A stretch of DNA of 32,672 nt, taken from the IMG/VR virus record IMGVR_UViG_3300029930_000007, positions 1 to 32,672 of that record, one strand, 5' to 3'. The notes beneath the pieces are model-generated. The model was not told the DNA's origin, ran no database searches, and saw only the letters and a program-made list of their open reading frames with translations. Shown in pieces: positions 1,013 through 31,864 of the stretch (position 1 is the first letter of the stretch; each line of letters opens with the position of its first letter). The translations under genes and the position numbers were made by a program. Source of the DNA: a virus (taxonomy: Duplodnaviria; Caudoviricetes).

Positions 1013-1297
1013 TTAGAACTTCGCAGAGTCGATGGCATCGGACAACCTGTTTGCAAACGAGTTGACGAATCTTTCGTTGTCACACAGGCTGGAGCCCATG
1101 TCGTTGAGGATGCCGTGCACCATCTCGTGCCAGAAGGTGTTGCGTATCTCGACGGCAGGATACGCGGTGCTGATCTCGATGCGCTTCTCGCTGTGCTTTA
1201 TCCGACCCATTATGTTGTCGTTGATGCGCTCAAGTTGATGCACAGTAAACCACTTGCTGCCAATCTTTATCTTCTTGGGTAACTTGACCTTGCTCAT
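1013..1297 (-). CDS. small HEXXH metallopeptidase-like protein
   Basis: FWHEMVHGIL...NERFV motif; SD AAGGAG; ATGA overlap with the upstream gene. Confidence 0.7.
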   Translation of the reverse strand: MSKVKLPKKIKIGSKWFTVHQLERINDNIMGRIKHSEKRIEISTAYPAVEIRNTFWHEMVHGILNDMGSSLCDNERFVNSFANRLSDAIDSAKF

Positions 1298-1482
1298 TGC
1301 TTCTCCTTCTCTTCTACGTGTTTGATTGACGTATATGTCAACCTTGCTTCTACGATCAACGCCAGTGTTTTCTCCAGCGCTGTCTCATAGTCTCTGTCCA
1401 AACAAGCGTTGTGAACTTCTTTGGCTAACCTCTCGACCGCCATCAGCGGTCCTGCGTAATCGATGTGTACTGTCTCGTTCAT
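1294..1482 (-). CDS. hypothetical protein (62 aa)
   Basis: Start MNETVHIDY follows the polymerase stop; its stop overlaps the next ATG. Confidence 0.65.
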   Translation of the reverse strand: MNETVHIDYAGPLMAVERLAKEVHNACLDRDYETALEKTLALIVEARLTYTSIKHVEEKEKQ

Positions 1483-6422: not shown

Positions 6423-6952
6423 TTGACACCTCCAAAGATTTTGTGCAGTTCGTCGTACAACTCACGGGCTTGTTTGATAGGCAGTGTATCGAGCAAACTC
6501 TGCGCTGGTGACACGACTACTTCTTTGACGATGGCTTCGACAGCACGCTCTTGCCGTGCCTGCAAACGCATCTTACGCTTGTCTCGTGCGCGTATGTTTG
6601 CAAGTTGCTTCTTGGTTGGCACAGGCATATACGATGTGAACTCAGTTGTCAACCTGCCATCAACTTCTTTGAAGTAACCTGCACGCACATACTGGGTGAT
6701 AAGCGATGAGACTGAGTTGTCAGAAAGACCCTCCTTCTGTAGCGCTTGTCGCAACTGTTTGCGGGTGTGGTGCGGGTGATCTACGACATACTGAAAAACG
6801 CTGCGTGAAACTCCGGGGTGTGCTTGCATTTGCTTCTCCTGTTTGGGTTGAGGTTGTGGATCGTCTTGTGACCATTCTGTGATGGTTTCCTGTAAAGCGC
6901 TGGCCTGTTTTTTGTCAAGCGCGGCCTGTAACGCGTCTTGTAAAGAAGGCAT
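6419..6952 (-). CDS. hypothetical protein, possibly winged-helix DNA-binding
   Basis: SVFQYVVDHPHHTRKQL...NSVSSLITQYVRAGYFKEVDG resembles a wHTH; second in-frame start at 6829. Confidence 0.55.
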   Translation of the reverse strand: MPSLQDALQAALDKKQASALQETITEWSQDDPQPQPKQEKQMQAHPGVSRSVFQYVVDHPHHTRKQLRQALQKEGLSDNSVSSLITQYVRAGYFKEVDGRLTTEFTSYMPVPTKKQLANIRARDKRKMRLQARQERAVEAIVKEVVVSPAQSLLDTLPIKQARELYDELHKIFGGVK

Positions 6953-6973: not shown

Positions 6974-7852
6974 TTAGAACGAAAACTTGTCCAAGATGGC
7001 ATCGACGGCCTTCTTGGTATCTTCCCGAACGGCATCGTTTTGACGCAGTTCCTCTGGCGTAACACCGAGCAAGCAATCGCTCAGTTCTTTGCGTGCTGTC
7101 TCAAGCGACTGATCGCCCACGACATTGAGAGCCTTGACCAAGTCGCACAACTCCAGCGCACCATCGACCAGCGAGTCGTGGAAGCGGCGGCGTTTGGTCT
7201 CGCCTTTGACAATGTCTGTGGTCAGTCGGTCAGACATACGCTTCATGTGCTCCCCAAGCCGAGCACGCACATCGGCCATAGCAGCGTCAATGCGCTCGTT
7301 AGCAAGACGCTCCAGCTTGTCGCGCAGTTCTTGCTGCGCTTGGTTGCCGACATCGACCCGGAAGTCACCTGCCACCGGCACAGGCATGTAGTTCACGCGG
7401 AACGAGAACTTGGTCATGATCTCATTGGCAGTCGGGTAGTCCTCACGCTTGAACATGCCGCCGAGCGCCATAGCCTGCGCCGTGATGAGCGAAGGATAGA
7501 TAGCCACGAATGATTTGACCAGAGCAGCGACCTCATCGTCGAACGCATTCATGCGCTCGGCAAACTTCTGGAAGTTCACTGTCGGCAACAGGCGCAGCCC
7601 TGAGTCAGACCACGGCAGGGTGTTGTCGTAAACAAACTGACGAGCGCGGTTGACTGCCTGCTGAATGACATCCAGTTCGGTGCGGCCTGCAAGCAGGTGT
7701 TTGTTCACCCGAGCGGCGTCCTTGGCTGCAGCGTTCTTGTTCTGCACCACTTCGTCGGTGGTTGACTTGTCCAGCTTACGCGCAGTCCAGACAGAGGCGT
7801 TGAACTCCACAAGCATGGAGCAGGTGTCGAGGTTGTAACGAGGTTGTGTCAT
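6974..7852 (-). CDS. helical protein, possibly DUF3150-like, third gene of the vWA/AAA module
   Basis: WTARKLD, TLPWSDSGLRLLP, DYPT..EI..KF motifs; SD AAGGAG. Confidence 0.6.
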   Translation of the reverse strand: MTQPRYNLDTCSMLVEFNASVWTARKLDKSTTDEVVQNKNAAAKDAARVNKHLLAGRTELDVIQQAVNRARQFVYDNTLPWSDSGLRLLPTVNFQKFAERMNAFDDEVAALVKSFVAIYPSLITAQAMALGGMFKREDYPTANEIMTKFSFRVNYMPVPVAGDFRVDVGNQAQQELRDKLERLANERIDAAMADVRARLGEHMKRMSDRLTTDIVKGETKRRRFHDSLVDGALELCDLVKALNVVGDQSLETARKELSDCLLGVTPEELRQNDAVREDTKKAVDAILDKFSF

Positions 7853-7912
7853 GATGCTTCTCCTTAAAGTTGATTGATGTTTGCCTGTTGAGAGGGCAGG
7901 CTCCTCATTGCT

Positions 7913-10237: not shown

Positions 10238-10265
10238 AGTGCTTCTCCTTTTCTTAGTTTTCACA

Positions 10266-12353: not shown

Positions 12354-12524
12354 TCATTCTCCTTTCTTGAGTTTCTCCACTATCGCCAGCGAACGCGGCG
12401 GGTGGAAGGGTTTGGTTGGGCTAAACAGGAAGGGGGTGAAGACAAGCGCTGTTGGTGGGAGAGGGCCCACCTTTTTGTTTAAGATGCCGCGCATCCATTG
12501 TCTGCGCGTTGGTTTTTTGATCAT
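12354..12524 (-). CDS. hypothetical protein (56 aa)
   Basis: Not in the ORF track; MIKKPTRRQWMRG...LKKGE with SD AAGGAG. Confidence 0.55.
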   Translation of the reverse strand: MIKKPTRRQWMRGILNKKVGPLPPTALVFTPFLFSPTKPFHPPRSLAIVEKLKKGE

Positions 12525-12545
12525 GTTGCTTTCTCCTTGGTAAAA

Positions 12546-12568
12546 CTCGCTGACAGGATGTCAGCAAG
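12546..12568. repeat. 23-bp palindromic motif, copy 1
   Basis: CTCGCTGACA-GGA-TGTCAGCAAG. Confidence 0.85.
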
Positions 12569-12592
12569 AAGTTGATGAGTGTTCCCTGCGGG

Positions 12593-12679
12593 TCAGGGAC
12601 GCCACCACAGCACATCGCACGCGACGACTATGAGCGCCAGCAGGAGCACTACGCGTACTATCTTTTCTTCTCGGGTCAT
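12593..12679 (-). CDS. 28-aa single-pass membrane peptide
   Basis: MTREEKIVRVVLLLALIVVACDVLWWRP; ATGA overlap with the upstream stop. Confidence 0.6.
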   Translation of the reverse strand: MTREEKIVRVVLLLALIVVACDVLWWRP

Positions 12680-12990
12680 TTCAATTCCTCCGGTACTTCA
12701 ACTTCATCTCCCAGCTTGCTGGCTACATAGCAGCGCATGGCTGCGATTAGCATGGTCGGGCCAAACTCCATGCAGATAGCTGGCCCTTCAACACGGGTAG
12801 CCAACCACCCATCGCCGTACTTGTCATGCGTCATGGGTTCCAGAGCGATTTCCTCCCGCTCGATGATCGGGCCACCTTGTGCCCAGTCGGTGGAGTAGGC
12901 AGGGACTGCCACGGGTTTGTATTCCCCGATGGCTTTCGCCACCATCCAGTTGAGCACCCCGCGCTTGGCTTCGCTTACTTTGACTTTCAT
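12676..12990 (-). CDS. NinX/DUF2591-like protein
   Basis: LNWMVAKA...YSTDWAQGGPIIERE...GPT.LIAAMRCYVASKLG. Confidence 0.8.
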   Translation of the reverse strand: MKVKVSEAKRGVLNWMVAKAIGEYKPVAVPAYSTDWAQGGPIIEREEIALEPMTHDKYGDGWLATRVEGPAICMEFGPTMLIAAMRCYVASKLGDEVEVPEELK

Positions 12991-13172
12991 TTGCTTTCTC
13001 CTTTCATTGCTGCTTCCAAAGCTTCGTTGACCCCTTTATTGGTCTTGATGTTGACACCCTTGTCTCCAAACGGATACTCCCCGTTCCACCCCTCGCCTGA
13101 TGCGGCAAACCCTGCATAGAAGCCAGCACGGAAGGCTTCTTCCCATATTTTGTTTAGCTCGTCTTGGTTCAT
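12987..13172 (-). CDS. hypothetical protein
   Basis: GF.ASGEGWNGEYPF; coupled on both sides. Confidence 0.7.
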   Translation of the reverse strand: MNQDELNKIWEEAFRAGFYAGFAASGEGWNGEYPFGDKGVNIKTNKGVNEALEAAMKGESK

Positions 13173-13453
13173 TTGCTTTCTCCTTTTATTGCTAACAAGT
13201 CGTACATAACAGCGTACCCCTCGGTGTCGGCTGCGCCAAGCCTGCTGTGTTTCTCCAGCGCCTCCTCGATAGCAGCCTGCACACCGGCAAGCGTCAAGTC
13301 TCCGCTGTTGAGCGCCTCCTGTGCTGCTCGGTTAAGGTCTAACGCTGCTGCGTTGCGCTGCGCAGTCAGGCGTCCGTCGTTGTCGCCATACAGCGCCCAG
13401 TCGTCAGCGGTCAGACTGAGTGTGAAGACACGCTTTACATGTACATTTCTCAT
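13169..13453 (-). CDS. hypothetical protein
   Basis: GAADTE motif; coupled on both sides. Confidence 0.7.
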   Translation of the reverse strand: MRNVHVKRVFTLSLTADDWALYGDNDGRLTAQRNAAALDLNRAAQEALNSGDLTLAGVQAAIEEALEKHSRLGAADTEGYAVMYDLLAIKGESK

Positions 13454-13635
13454 TTGCTTTCTCCTTTCATTTCCTCTACAGACTCAAGACTCCAGTTGCC
13501 ATAGTCCGAGCGGTGTGACCCGTCGCTTTCAAGCTCTTTCCACGCAAGCGCCTCTGCTTCTTCGGCGTTGTCTGCCTCCACAGTAATAACTGTGTAGGAC
13601 TCATACCGCAACTCGACTTCGTAGGTCTTTTTCAT
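13450..13635 (-). CDS. small acidic hypothetical protein
   Basis: MKKTYEVEL...VEADNAEEAEALA. Confidence 0.7.
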   Translation of the reverse strand: MKKTYEVELRYESYTVITVEADNAEEAEALAWKELESDGSHRSDYGNWSLESVEEMKGESK

Positions 13636-13636
13636 T

Positions 13637-13828
13637 TCACATCTCCCAGCCCATGCGCGGGGCATAACGCTCAAACAACTCGGGGAAGGCGTCGACCACC
13701 CTCACTTGGTTCGTGCTGTCCGCACGAAAGTACGCCAGCGCTATCGCCTTAGCGAAGCTGCCGCCGTAGCTCTTCATGTTGTGCGCTGCCTGTGCGAGTT
13801 CGCTACCGCTCATCTCGTTTGCTTTCAT
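13637..13828 (-). CDS. hypothetical protein (YGGSF..A...AD..N family)
   Basis: Start MKANEM with SD AAGGAG. Confidence 0.72.
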   Translation of the reverse strand: MKANEMSGSELAQAAHNMKSYGGSFAKAIALAYFRADSTNQVRVVDAFPELFERYAPRMGWEM

Positions 13829-13870
13829 TTGCTTTCTCCTTGTTGTGCCCTGCAACCGGCAGGGCGGCGG

Positions 13871-15276: not shown

Positions 15277-15328
15277 GGTTGTCGGGCAAGATCGCCCCCT
15301 CAACCCTGCACGCAGGGTTGAGAGAGTT
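15277..15328 (-). repeat. duplicated structured leader, copy A
   Basis: 26 nt identical to 15598-15623, plus a long hairpin. Confidence 0.8.
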
Positions 15329-15828: not shown

Positions 15829-15898
15829 GATTGGCACTCCTGATTGACACAAAAAGAAACCGCGCCACCCCCTCGCAGGAGTGACGCGGCGCGAAAAA

Positions 15899-16335: not shown

Positions 16336-16408
16336 GGTTGCACTCCAAAAGAAAAAGCCCGGCGACTGGCCGGGCATCAGATCGTCTGGCTCCCCAAACG
16401 ATGAATCT

Positions 16409-16417: not shown

Positions 16418-16654
16418 CACAGGGGTATCGTGAGGGGGTCGTGGCGTGGCTCTTGCTAGGCGATTTTGCCCTGCGGCGACCCCACCATACCCCCACCCAC
16501 CCAGTTTGGCATGGCGGCGGCGACGTTACGTGAACACTGTTTTGCACCCGGTCCCAGCATTTCTGTAATACCTTTTGCTTATCTTTGCCTTACCTCCCCT
16601 ACCCCACAAATTTTTTCTACAAAATCCACACAACCCCTTGTCAAACGCAAGACA

Positions 16655-16690
16655 AATAAAAAAGGCCCCACCAGTTTCCCGGCAGGGCCT
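16655..16690 (-). terminator. intrinsic terminator
   Basis: AGGCCCUGCCGG-GAAA-CUGGUGGGGCCU followed by a U tract; three G-U pairs work only on the minus strand. Confidence 0.78.
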
Positions 16691-16746
16691 AAGGAGGTAT
16701 CTCAACCCCAAGGAGAAGCAAATCAACAACTGCTTGCCGCTTTGCT
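16655..16746 (-). ncRNA. candidate anti-Shine-Dalgarno small RNA
   Basis: Predicted promoter upstream, two CUCCUU seeds and an intrinsic terminator; ends approximate. Confidence 0.65.
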
Positions 16747-16781
16747 AAACCGAGTGTACACTCCAGCGCCAATAGCCACAA
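16734..16781. promoter_or_regulatory. overlapping divergent sigma70-type promoters
   Basis: Plus strand TTGCCG(16734)-17-TACACT(16757); minus strand TTGTGG(16781)-17-TACACT(16758); shared palindrome AGTGTACACT. Confidence 0.55.
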
Positions 16782-16810: not shown

Positions 16811-17413
16811 ATGTTGGAGCATTTGGTGCAGTTTGAACCGGAGATCACCAGCCGGGACGGTTTTGTGAAACTGGAGAACGTCTCCAGCGAAGACTTGCTT
16901 GCTGCGCAGGTTAATACTGACGCATGGTTGCGCTCCTTGGGCGTGGCCACAGACGAAGAGATTGCGCAGGACAAGGAAAAAGAAGCCGCCAGAGAAGCTT
17001 TTGGTGCGCTGACCACGACTGCCGACGACTTGGAAACCAAGGAAAAGCTCGTCGCGCTTAAAACTCCTGCTGCCGTACGGCATCTGACGGGCATGCTGAC
17101 TGCCTATGACTGGGAATTTGTACAGCAGGCCAAGGAAATCCGTGGGTATACGGTGGCGCAGCTTCTGGAAGAGACCAAAAATCCCAACGCGAACATCCGT
17201 CTGAAGGCGCTGGGGTTGCTGGGCAAGGTCACAGAGGTTGGGTTGTTCACAGAGAAGGTGGAAATCAAGAAGACGGACTTGACTGAGGAAGAAGTCGAGG
17301 CCAAGCTCAAGGAGAAGTTGGCCAAATTCATGGGTGTGGTCGACGCTGACTACACCGACGTGGAAGAAAAGCTGCAGATTACCAATGACAACCAACCCGC
17401 CGCTGACGCCTGA
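16811..17413 (+). CDS. terS: probable terminase small subunit
   Basis: Directly precedes terL; helical RLKALGLLGK...VGLFTEKVEI pattern; start taken at MLEHL. Confidence 0.6.
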   Translation: MLEHLVQFEPEITSRDGFVKLENVSSEDLLAAQVNTDAWLRSLGVATDEEIAQDKEKEAAREAFGALTTTADDLETKEKLVALKTPAAVRHLTGMLTAYDWEFVQQAKEIRGYTVAQLLEETKNPNANIRLKALGLLGKVTEVGLFTEKVEIKKTDLTEEEVEAKLKEKLAKFMGVVDADYTDVEEKLQITNDNQPAADA

Positions 17414-23439: not shown

Positions 23440-24066
23440 ATGGCATCAGTAGCATCCCCGTACGGGCTACGGCCCGTCAATCAGTTGGGTGGCACCCCCT
23501 ATGCGGGCGCAACCCGTACTTATCTCATCGACCCCGCAGGTACTGCCTCAAACATTTACAACGGCTCGCCCGTGTATGTGAATGCCAGCGGTTATCTGGC
23601 TGTGGCAACCGCCACTGGCGCTGATGCGACTACCAATGGATTTCCCACCGGCACCGCTAATACCGGTATCGTGGGTGTGTTCGTTGGCTGCTCGTACTAC
23701 AACGCTCAAGGGCAGTTGATTTTCTCGCAGTACTACCCCACGGGTACGACTGGCGTCATTCAGGCGTCGGTTGTTGACGATCCCAACGTGGTGTTTCAGG
23801 TCCAGTCCGCTGGCACTGTTACGCAAGCCGCTGTGGGTGCAAACGTGTTCTTCTCTACTGGCGCTGTGGCAACTGGCAGCACCTCCACTGGCAACTCCAC
23901 GGCTTCTATCGTGGCTGGTGCCTCGGCGGTTACTACCACTGCAGCATTCCGTGTTGTCGGGTTCCCGAACGTGCAAGGCTTCTCGGTTGTGGGCGATGCT
24001 TACACCGACGTCTACGTGAAGATCAACCCCGGCTATCACACCTATACCAACGCTGTTGGTCTGTAA
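23440..24066 (+). CDS. probable capsid decoration/minor capsid protein
   Basis: PYGLRPV...GVFVGC.Y...DDPNVVFQVQ; Ala/Thr/Gly-rich; directly precedes the MCP. Confidence 0.7.
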   Translation: MASVASPYGLRPVNQLGGTPYAGATRTYLIDPAGTASNIYNGSPVYVNASGYLAVATATGADATTNGFPTGTANTGIVGVFVGCSYYNAQGQLIFSQYYPTGTTGVIQASVVDDPNVVFQVQSAGTVTQAAVGANVFFSTGAVATGSTSTGNSTASIVAGASAVTTTAAFRVVGFPNVQGFSVVGDAYTDVYVKINPGYHTYTNAVGL

Positions 24067-25115: not shown

Positions 25116-25715
25116 ATGGACTACCCCAAAACCCGCGCAGAAGCCAAAGCTACGGGCGCTACCCACTACTTCACGGGACAACCTTGCACCCGAGGGCACA
25201 TTGCTCTACGCAAAACAAAAGGTTCGTGTGTTGAGTGCATGAAAGAGGATTGGACGCTTGACAACGAAAAACGCAAGGCCAAGCCAAAGTCTGACGCAGC
25301 AAAAGCCGCCGGTCGCAGGTACTACGAGAAGAACCGGGAGGCGGTAAAAGCCCGAGCTAACACACGTCCAAAAAACGAAACAAACGCGTATAAGAAAAGA
25401 CATAAAGTTAACAACCCGGCCTACTACAACGCGCTGACCAGCGTGCGCAAGCGCCGTCACCGAGAGGCCACACCTAAATGGGTCACCGCAGAGCAAAAAC
25501 TGGCTATGCGGAAAACGTATCTTGCTGCCATGCGTTTGACAAAGATTTCTGCGGAAAGGTACGTCGTAGACCACATATACCCCCTGATTAGCCCGGTTGT
25601 TTGTGGGCTGCATGTGCCGTGGAATTTACGGGTAATGACACAGGCCGAAAACCTCCAGAAATCAAATTCTTTGCCGCCAGACGATCAGGCGCTTGCATTC
25701 CCCCCAAACAAGTGA
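25116..25715 (+). CDS. free-standing HNH homing endonuclease
   Basis: YFTGQPC..GH...CVEC at the N-terminus; VDHIYPL...GLHVPWNL......N..KSN. Confidence 0.88.
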   Translation: MDYPKTRAEAKATGATHYFTGQPCTRGHIALRKTKGSCVECMKEDWTLDNEKRKAKPKSDAAKAAGRRYYEKNREAVKARANTRPKNETNAYKKRHKVNNPAYYNALTSVRKRRHREATPKWVTAEQKLAMRKTYLAAMRLTKISAERYVVDHIYPLISPVVCGLHVPWNLRVMTQAENLQKSNSLPPDDQALAFPPNK

Positions 25716-30591: not shown

Positions 30592-31301
30592 ATTACACCG
30601 AGTTGTCCACTGCGATCAAAGATTACACGCAGAACTTTGAGGCCGACTTCATTGCGAACATTCCGGTGTTCGTGGAGCAGGCCGAGCAGCGCATTTACAA
30701 CTCGGTTCAATTCCCGTCTCTCCGCAAAAACGTCACCGGCTCTTTGTCCGCCAACAACAAATACTTGTCATGCCCGAATGACTTCCTGTCAACATATTCG
30801 TTGGCAATCATTACTGGTGTGACGGGTGGGAACCTCAACACGGGTTCTTATGAGTATCTGCTAAACAAGGATGTGAACTTCATCCGGCAGGCATACCCAA
30901 CGCCCAACGACACCGGGGTTCCAAAGTATTACGCGCTTTTTGGGCCGACTGTTTCTGGCGCGACCATCTCCGATGAGTTAAGTTTTATTGTTGGCCCGAC
31001 TCCTGATGCAGCCTACGACGTTGAGTTGCATTACTACTATTACCCGGAGTCGATCACTGTTGCTGCTGATGGCCAAACATGGCTGGGTGATAACTTTGAC
31101 ACGGTTCTGTTGTATGGTTCGCTGGTAGAGGCCGCAATCTTCATGAAAAGTGAAGCCGACATGATGAGCTACTATGACGGCAAATACAAAGAGGCGTTGG
31201 CTTTGGCTCAGAGACTTGGTGACGGCCTTGAGAGATCGGATGCGTACCGCAGTGGTCAGTACCGTCAAGCTCCATTACCTCAAAATAACGGGGTTAAATG
31301 A
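30588..31301 (+). CDS. second head-tail adaptor-like protein
   Basis: MNYTEL...AEQRI...G.PKYYA...GPTPD..Y.VELHY...LLYGSL.EA. Confidence 0.7.
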   Translation: MNYTELSTAIKDYTQNFEADFIANIPVFVEQAEQRIYNSVQFPSLRKNVTGSLSANNKYLSCPNDFLSTYSLAIITGVTGGNLNTGSYEYLLNKDVNFIRQAYPTPNDTGVPKYYALFGPTVSGATISDELSFIVGPTPDAAYDVELHYYYYPESITVAADGQTWLGDNFDTVLLYGSLVEAAIFMKSEADMMSYYDGKYKEALALAQRLGDGLERSDAYRSGQYRQAPLPQNNGVK

Positions 31302-31864
31302 TGGAAACGACCCGTCGAGCCGCACTTGCAAAAAAGGAGCTTCAGTATTTCACTGGGAAAGCGTGCCCACAGGGGCATGTTGCTCCGCGCCGCGCTCATA
31401 ACGGAGAGTGTGTTGCATGTCGCACGGAGCGGTTGACGGCATGGCGGATAGAGAACCCCCTCAAAGTGCAGCAGCACAACAAGACGCAGTATGCACGGTT
31501 TGCGGAAAAAATAAAGGCCGCAGTTCGTAAGTACAACGCAGAAAATGCGGATGTTGTGAATGCAAAAAAACGGGCCTATCAAAAAACCCATCTACACGTG
31601 TACGCCAAAATAAAGGCAAAGCGTAAGGCCGCTGAGTTAAAGCGCACACCTGCATGGCTCACCGAAGATGATCATTGGATGATGGAGCAAGCGTACGAGT
31701 TGGCGGCGCTACGCACAAGCGTGTTTGGAGTTCCATTTCAGGTGGATCATGTGCTGCCCCTACAGGGTAAGCTCGTATCCGGGTTTCACACACCACTAAA
31801 TTTGCAAGTGATTCCGGCTAAACTCAACCGCGCTAAGTCCAACACCTTTGAGGTTGCCGTATGA
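31298..31864 (+). CDS. free-standing HNH homing endonuclease
   Basis: YFTGKAC..GH...CVAC; TPAW; VDHVLPLQGK.VSGFH...NL......N..KSN. Confidence 0.88.
   Translation: MMETTRRAALAKKELQYFTGKACPQGHVAPRRAHNGECVACRTERLTAWRIENPLKVQQHNKTQYARFAEKIKAAVRKYNAENADVVNAKKRAYQKTHLHVYAKIKAKRKAAELKRTPAWLTEDDHWMMEQAYELAALRTSVFGVPFQVDHVLPLQGKLVSGFHTPLNLQVIPAKLNRAKSNTFEVAV

Follow-up and report, generated by a model that had tools for sequence, protein, structure and literature searches.

In a large set of uncultured phages, a conserved stretch is located just 5′ of the packaging genes, and in the phage genome analyzed here this stretch (16655..16746, minus strand) is very probably a real small RNA gene. We observe its anatomy, its conservation, a contrast between early and late ribosome-binding sites (RBSs), and a partial matching between seeds and RBSs. 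As for its function, our preferred reading, which we consider probable from sequence comparisons, is that the RNA would act in trans to repress translation of the phage early genes through AGGAGA-type RBSs, and the late genes are predicted to be spared because they are mostly without AGGAGA.

The window, which is the whole stretch of DNA that was analyzed (32,672 nucleotides, IMG/VR record IMGVR_UViG_3300029930_000007), is a 32.7-kb phage record with two arms. The leftward arm contains genes for DNA polymerase, nucleases, and an ATPase, and numerous small ORFs, and the rightward arm contains terL, portal, GroES, and capsid genes. The labels early (leftward) and late (rightward) were assigned from gene content and thus give an inferred timing. 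TerL of the window is ~50% identical to TerL of DSL-LC04, HTVC027P, and HTVC023P. The product of the 200-aa gene before terL received no family name from PHROGs, Pfam, a homolog search, or Atlas, and this protein had no match among annotated phages in our search for cultured relatives. Blastn for cultured relatives returned only chance hits at the level of the terminator, and a model of the phage copies of the RNA found no match in the examined stretches of DSL-LC04, HTVC023P, MinM2, and Anaya. Among the 59 window proteins scanned, there was neither an antirepressor nor an integrase. The host is probably a betaproteobacterium, because a homologous 1.7-kb contig with the element lies inside a Limnohabitans MAG (mis-binning is possible) and because the rightward -35 box fits TTGCC, the -35 consensus reported in Burkholderia (PMC4603805).

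On the minus strand the element folds into three hairpins with a fold z of -3.44, versus -0.80 for the plus strand. The strand-specific intrinsic terminator, which the original prediction had placed after the seed-bearing sequence, is confirmed and is found on the minus strand only. All counts of anatomy below use 87 distinct copies. The UCUCCU core of seed 1 has a P(unpaired) above 0.7 in 86/87 copies, and the seed extension is base-paired in 86/87 folds. The partner of the G in this extension is C in 43 copies and U in 42, and the seed itself is nearly fixed. This switching between G:C and G:U while the seed stays suggests that the seed extension is under constraint beyond folding. Two hairpins are located 3′ of the seed in the folds of 84/87 copies. 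The first of these, hairpin 2, opens with 28 different hexamers among the copies and is absent in one clade (L480, L483, and L485-L492); it comes from single-sequence folds, and RNAalifold with a loose alignment did not recover it. In the terminator, 8/9 consensus pairs show two-sided changes (56 of the 87 sequences aligned), and a GNRA loop is present in at least 53/87 copies. The region 5′ of the terminator has a median fold z of -2.6 (30 shuffles each). We note that several loci (L257, L272, L276, L280, L285, L290, L295, L407, and L434) carry extra small hairpins, often GGCCUUYGGCC, in the loop of the 5′ hairpin. These insertions lengthen the RNA to at most ~135 nt and leave the seed untouched.

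Table 1 Features of the small RNA locus, its promoters, and predicted target RBSs in the window.
Feature	Position	Strand	Remarks
Predicted ~90-nt small RNA	16655..16746	-	fold z -3.44; start inferred 7 nt after -10 box
5′ hairpin; 3′ arm carries the UUUGCU seed extension	16717..16746	-	folds; at least 4 bp in 87/87
Seed 1, AUUUGCUUCUCCUUG	16709..16723	-	alignment columns nearly invariant
Single-stranded core UCUCCU of seed 1	16711-16716	-	P(unpaired) 0.99 in window
Hairpin 2, sequence-variable; 3′ arm is seed 2 of the original prediction	16694..16709	-	single-sequence folds
Intrinsic terminator, GAAA loop and U-tract	16657..16690	-	minus strand only
-35-like box TTGTGG, predicted small RNA promoter	16776..16781	-	17 nt from -10 box
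Palindrome AGTGTACACT with overlapping -10-like boxes	16753..16762	.	sequence; conserved in homologs
-10-like box, predicted small RNA promoter	16753-16758	-	within palindrome AGTGTACACT
-10-like box, packaging operon promoter	16757-16762	+	within palindrome AGTGTACACT
-35-like box TTGCCG, predicted rightward (late) promoter	16734..16739	+	TTG, 17-19 nt spacing in 83/87
200-aa gene before terL	16811..17413	+	small terminase by position only; terL next downstream
Predicted target RBS, 94-aa gene after DNA polymerase (family 2)	1297..1308	-	12-nt match
Predicted target RBS, best early site	6828..6840	-	13-nt match
Predicted target RBS, 292-aa gene	7855..7865	-	11-nt match
Predicted target RBS, DUF2201 gene (family 3)	10240..10250	-	11-nt match
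Five AGGAGAAAGCA sites, genes at 12524, 12990, 13172, 13453, 13828	12524..13842	-	pairing with one bulge

The element was found in 126/148 loci (the window and its relatives) by pattern and in four more by eye or model, i.e. ~130/148. The remaining loci comprise 14 without the element, one short locus of the lacking type, and three cut by contig ends. A further scan found the element in 59/65 loci, the other six being cut, and 17 additional loci inspected by eye all showed promoter, seed-like stretch, and terminator. The loose pattern used for collection gave mostly chance hits, as the terminator filter was passed by 11/120, 10 of them true copies. We found no description of the element in the literature that we searched. 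PMC12195039 held nothing relevant, and four seed strings are absent from the supplement of PMC10690425 outside its files 1 and 2, in which the element might be listed without a name.

Seed 1 (plus 16709-16723) had been predicted to be complementary to a series of RBSs in the window, and all the matches named are present in the sequence. The longest exact match, 13 nt, is at 6829; those at 1297 and 25116 span 12 nt, and those at 7852 and 10237 span 11 nt. Sites 6228 and 11967 pair with one mismatch, and those at 12990, 13172, 13453, and 13828 with one bulge, as does a previously unlisted site at 12524. Pairing was also said to extend past the SD core toward the AUG, and this extension is beyond chance. 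It is found at 9/12 early AGGAGA sites in the window, compared with 0.4 expected (0/5000 shuffles), and only 5/500 shuffled seed 1 extensions pair as well. The ranking of phage versus host RBSs with shuffled controls, proposed as a check, likewise came out in favor of the early genes, with median seed 1 pairing of -19.0 kcal/mol for early, -11.3 for late, and -13.0 for host sites. In the late arm there are two endonuclease VII-like genes (25116-25715 and 31298-31864), and the one at 25116 has an early-type address without the leading A, which might suit a mobile nuclease.

To compare genomes, RBSs were called as a simple AGGAG...ATG plus ORF in 21 whole or partial genomes. Two forms of the early RBS, A2 (AGGAGAAGC) and A3 (AGGAGAAAGC), together make up the address AGGAGA(A)AGC. 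This address is present at 88/375 early sites, 1/170 late sites, and 1/86 host sites, the last sampled from 800 kb of two host-genus genomes. Shuffling of the spacers predicts 7.3/253 address sites, with a maximum of 19 in 1000 shuffles, and the A2 pattern has 38 occurrences in ~126 Mb from 31 host-family genomes. AGGAGA itself is found at 253/375 early versus 21/170 late SD sites, with a higher share in the early arm in 21/21 genomes, and at 88/148 early versus 11/88 late sites in nine further genomes. The common host address AGGAGACA accounts for 4/375 early phage sites versus 10/86 host sites. The seed extension beats shuffled extensions (p up to 0.05) in 21/27 genomes, including 5/9 of the last-added ones; this set omits G009, and its genomes are related, so these counts are not independent. 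In G012, ~2 kb at the start of the record are repeated near its end, doubling several RBS matches, and the later counts therefore treat identical sites as one.

These comparisons bear on whether the RNA is mainly directed at the host. It could mimic S17 and its family RF02278 and block host AGGAGA sites, for example those of transporters, with the matches in the phage being secondary. Such a function would agree with a seed of which only the core is unpaired, with AGGAGA at 32/86 sampled host sites, with a layout common to the host RNA, with the host seed UGUCUCCU in one phage copy (L471), and with mismatches of the extension in several phages. However, seed 1 pairs less well with host sites than with early sites (the medians given above), its extension matches 1/86 host sites, and matched shifts occur at phage orthologs. 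We consider a mainly host-directed RNA rather unlikely.

The original prediction proposed testing in related phages whether seed and RBS co-vary, and the comparison gave partial co-variation, seen at two gene families and in two rarer matched shifts but not at a third family. In a tally of seed and RBS classes over 105 non-redundant rows, phages with an A3 seed have 0 A2 and 60 A3 sites, and those with an A2 seed have 79 A2 and, in addition, 51 A3 sites. Joint shifts of seed and RBS are seen at two orthologous genes, in approximately three lineages. In families 1 and 2, the RBS class follows the seed class across genomes, and the seed of a phage itself outperforms permuted seeds in pairing (17/5000 for family 1 and 1/5000 for family 2, relatedness ignored), while family 3 shows no significant own-seed preference (774/5000, relatedness ignored). 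In the C-insertion clade there is a matched shift (TGAGGAGAGA), with family 2 RBSs of the form TGAGGAGAG(A). Seeds ending in CUCCGUU or CUCCAUU in G091 and G093 pair with the family 1 sites AACGGAG and AATGGAGA, and the family 1 site of G092 has a one-base mismatch to the seed. The classes largely track clades, and an independent-contrast test of seed versus RBS class yielded three pairs on well-supported branches, also with a post hoc trait, a number at which significance is unreachable. Because the classes follow clades and the independent contrasts number three, co-evolution of seed and RBS is suggested at most. The family 1 gene (e.g. L089:15431-15820, minus) is not in the window; its best PHROG label is minor head protein, and it has a weak Gam-like hit. 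Its RBS is the most consistently matched across genomes and is usually located 15-20 nt after a TAGACA/TTGACA box.

Several genomes depart from this matching. G015 has an A2 seed, yet mostly A3 sites, the seed of the window ranks 11/19 on its own RBSs, and the commonest early RBS in G091-G093, AGGAGAACCA, mismatches the seed extension. Phages with an AUA seed were predicted to carry GGAGATAGCA targets; this prediction failed in G091-G093 and G019, held once, in L485, and was dropped. The early arms of G091-G093 are dominated by a repeated RBS that differs from the address, AGGAGAACCAACCATG, and no RNA extension matches it. Uniform AGGAGAAGCAACCATG sites persist at approximately three genes in the clade that lacks the RNA, and in its close relatives G086 and G087 the seeds are degenerate and the address is kept. 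A relocated copy was not found in G001 and G002 by the model, a generic terminator scan, or a seed search of these records, which are linear and may be incomplete. This pattern fits a dispensable regulator that decayed and was then deleted, and also fits an address kept for a different reason.

One such reason would be a protein that reads the address, either a RegB-like nuclease or a translational regulator, with the RNA as a secondary modulator or an anti-kin superinfection weapon. The persistence of the address in phages whose RNA is lost or decayed is what this explanation would lead one to expect, and a precedent is T4 RegB, which is reported to use an 11-nt GGAG-plus-A-rich early address (PMC1702504). 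In most genomes, however, the address class tracks the seed class, no candidate for such a protein came to notice, and we regard a protein as the main reader as unlikely. Neither this explanation nor the host-directed one is exclusive, as both are compatible with early-gene repression by the RNA.

The promoter predicted upstream of the RNA was not called by a promoter scan, but its boxes are conserved, with the leftward TTG preceding TAYACT by 17 nt in at least 85/87 distinct homologs. The clade that lacks the RNA has TACACC as its leftward -10 box in 6/6 distinct sequences and GTG at the start of its leftward -35 box in 5/6. The decay of these boxes suggests that promoter and RNA were lost together. 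GCAA is conserved inside the 5′ hairpin of the RNA because the rightward -35 box overlaps there. An element acting only in cis, i.e. a terminator or attenuator that halts leftward transcription before a putative genome end or origin and whose seed is structural or a relic, would account for the back-to-back promoters sharing a -10 palindrome, for the GCAA conservation through the rightward -35 box, and for the paired state of the extension in its hairpin. A terminator, however, needs no invariant unpaired UCUCC, no preserved leftward -35 box, and no matching RBS shifts, and the leftward promoter decays where the unit is lost, which makes a purely cis-acting element improbable. The region 16420-16655 of the window, and the same position in relatives, is non-coding and contains C-runs, conserved A-tracts (AAATTTTTATAAAATTT-like), and palindromes of the TTTGACA/GTCTAAC type; from these features it may be a genome end, a site of packaging, or an origin. 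Further along the minus strand, strong hairpins (16357-16375, 15859-15890, and 15299-15322) immediately precede the RBSs of leftward genes one to three. U-tracts follow the first two, and the hairpin at 15859-15890 includes ACUCCU, complementary to the AGGAGU SD directly after it. These hairpins are possibly attenuators or RNase-protecting stems.

A second seed in the RNA had been proposed to address late genes. Its matches are present: the capsid RBS (24080) pairs at 14 positions, and TAAGGAG(G) occurs at 23440, 30219, and 32293. However, 326/500 shuffles pair as well or better with the late RBSs, and its extension does no better than shuffles on the early RBSs (387/500). The core of seed 2 is paired in the window fold (P unpaired 0.19), and ACCUCC is found in 2/87 homologs. 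Since seed 2 amounts to a private hairpin arm that is base-paired, and since the conserved core is avoided in late genes, we reject the targeting of late genes through it. Because of the same two points, the likeness to the 16S 3′ tail, for which we used the sequence as first given, is incidental. Of the broader claim that one RNA silences many genes via an extended address, the part on early genes is thus upheld by the early/late contrast and the partial co-variation, and the part on late genes is not. A reading of the plus-strand copy as a genuine RBS, serving either a short upstream ORF or an extended small terminase, is very unlikely and was rejected. An ATG follows the SD-like copy in 38/87 homologs, two of which run in frame into the 200-aa gene, but is missing in 49/87 including the window, as originally stated for the window. 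The other ORFs have 9-47 codons spread over all three frames, the copy is located 5′ of the rightward promoter, and the structure signals are on the minus strand.

In the early-gene repression that we favor, the RNA would be transcribed from the leftward sigma70-like promoter overlapping the packaging-operon promoter, and its free UCUCCU core would dock on AGGAGA of the early RBSs. The 5′ hairpin would open, or RNase E would remove it as for S17, and the freed UUGCU would extend the pairing toward the AUG. Hfq may assist through the U-tail. Accumulation of the RNA would damp early genes both in the resident phage and in incoming kin that share its address, and seed 2 would have no conserved part in this mechanism.

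A wider reading, which we offer only tentatively and think more doubtful than not, is that in this widespread phage family the early/late programme is encoded in the RBS itself (AGGAGA plus AGCAA early, AGGAGC/U late) and is read by one RNA taken from host RF02278 and re-addressed away from host targets. Such an RNA would be an RNA-guided counterpart of RegB, could provide kin-specific superinfection exclusion, and would explain the lone reverse copy of the SAS repeats discussed below. If early-gene repression by the RNA holds, a dispersed regulon would be under the control of a single RNA by way of an address in the Shine-Dalgarno spacer; phage antisense RNAs known to us mostly control one gene or operon. 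The phage family is abundant, and we found no cultured member. The RNA would also provide a specific model of how early genes are shut off, or of quiescence, in a phage in whose window neither an integrase nor a repressor was seen, and it suggests that a host small RNA design can be redirected by a seed insertion of 2-4 nt.

Multi-target anti-RBS small RNAs of such a layout are known in Betaproteobacteria (PMC11722255, PMC5688073). RF02278, a family of toxic small RNAs of this group, includes the Burkholderia double-hairpin RNAs ncS03/05/27/62 (BdhR1) and Bordetella S17. For S17, RNase E processing and Hfq dependence are reported, and 70/92 up-regulated genes have complementary RBSs (PMC11722255, preprint). 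For the Burkholderia copies, binding over RBSs is predicted, and their overexpression is reported to slow growth (PMC5688073). RF02278 and the phage RNA have in common a sigma70-type promoter, a 5′ leader, a single-stranded UCUCCU anti-RBS seed, a hairpin, a short U-rich linker, and a GC terminator, often with a GCAA loop. The RF02278 consensus runs UGUCUCCU, hairpin, UUCA, and terminator, and 24/26 Limnohabitans-genus genomes contain a single copy that has a promoter, a leader, and a GCAA terminator. The corresponding layout of free anti-RBS seed, hairpin, and terminator is seen in 84/87 folds of the phage RNA, one clade lacking hairpin 2. The phage U-tail and 5′ leader would be compatible with Hfq dependence and RNase E processing as in RF02278.

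The two RNAs also differ. The phage seed is UUGCU(U)UCUCCU versus UGUCUCCUCCACC in RF02278, the conserved Site 2 loop of RF02278 is not conserved in the phage RNA, and RF02278 is chromosomal with host transport and metabolism targets, whereas the phage RNA is phage-borne with its address concentrated on phage early genes. RF02278 scores are below the 50-bit cut-off, with 17.2 bits for the window and 19-31.4 bits in 6/11 homologous loci, none being listed for the others. The RF02278 5′ block (an invariant ~27-nt stretch that includes Site 1 UGUCUCCU and the C/U-rich Site 2 loop) is not found, and only UCUCCU is common. CCUCC is located downstream of the seed in 15/87 copies. Site 1 UGUCUCCU occurs among the phage copies only in L471, located upstream of a homolog of the 200-aa gene, where the seed AAUGUCUCCU equals the core of host RF02278 Site 1. 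With the model of the phage copies, host copies score 21-27 bits, close to terminator-only fragments, versus 41-71 bits for full-length phage copies. Common descent of the phage RNA and RF02278 is plausible from these likenesses. For suhB/MmgR (RF00519), scores are 18-28 bits against a cut-off of 41.

The nearest phage antisense RNA is c4 of P1/P7, reported to act in trans, to block an RBS, and to differ in specificity between phages (PMC12197685). c4 targets a temperate-phage antirepressor mRNA and not dispersed early RBSs, and our RNA has no Rfam match to C4 antisense RNA (RF01695) at E up to 5 and no antirepressor among the window proteins scanned. A functional parallel is T4 RegB, which is reported to act with S1 on an 11-nt GGAG-plus-A-rich address at the SD of early mRNAs (PMC1702504). 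RegB is a protein nuclease, while the phage RNA is predicted to be an antisense reader of an early extended SD address. The same genomic anatomy, with unrelated sequence and host, is found in the SAS of Cluster K mycobacteriophages, a repeated extended SD reported at non-structural genes with a single reverse copy without a start (PMC3203893). We confirmed this arrangement in the scanned stretch of Anaya, where 14 forward copies and one reverse intergenic copy were found. The reverse copy (L343:24871-24883) lies in the gap separating gp96 from gp97 and follows a strong hairpin; no U-tract terminator was seen there, and the model of the phage copies gave no match. This reverse copy is a candidate antisense RNA, and with the phage RNA as a guide, the question of what the Cluster K SAS repeats do becomes testable.
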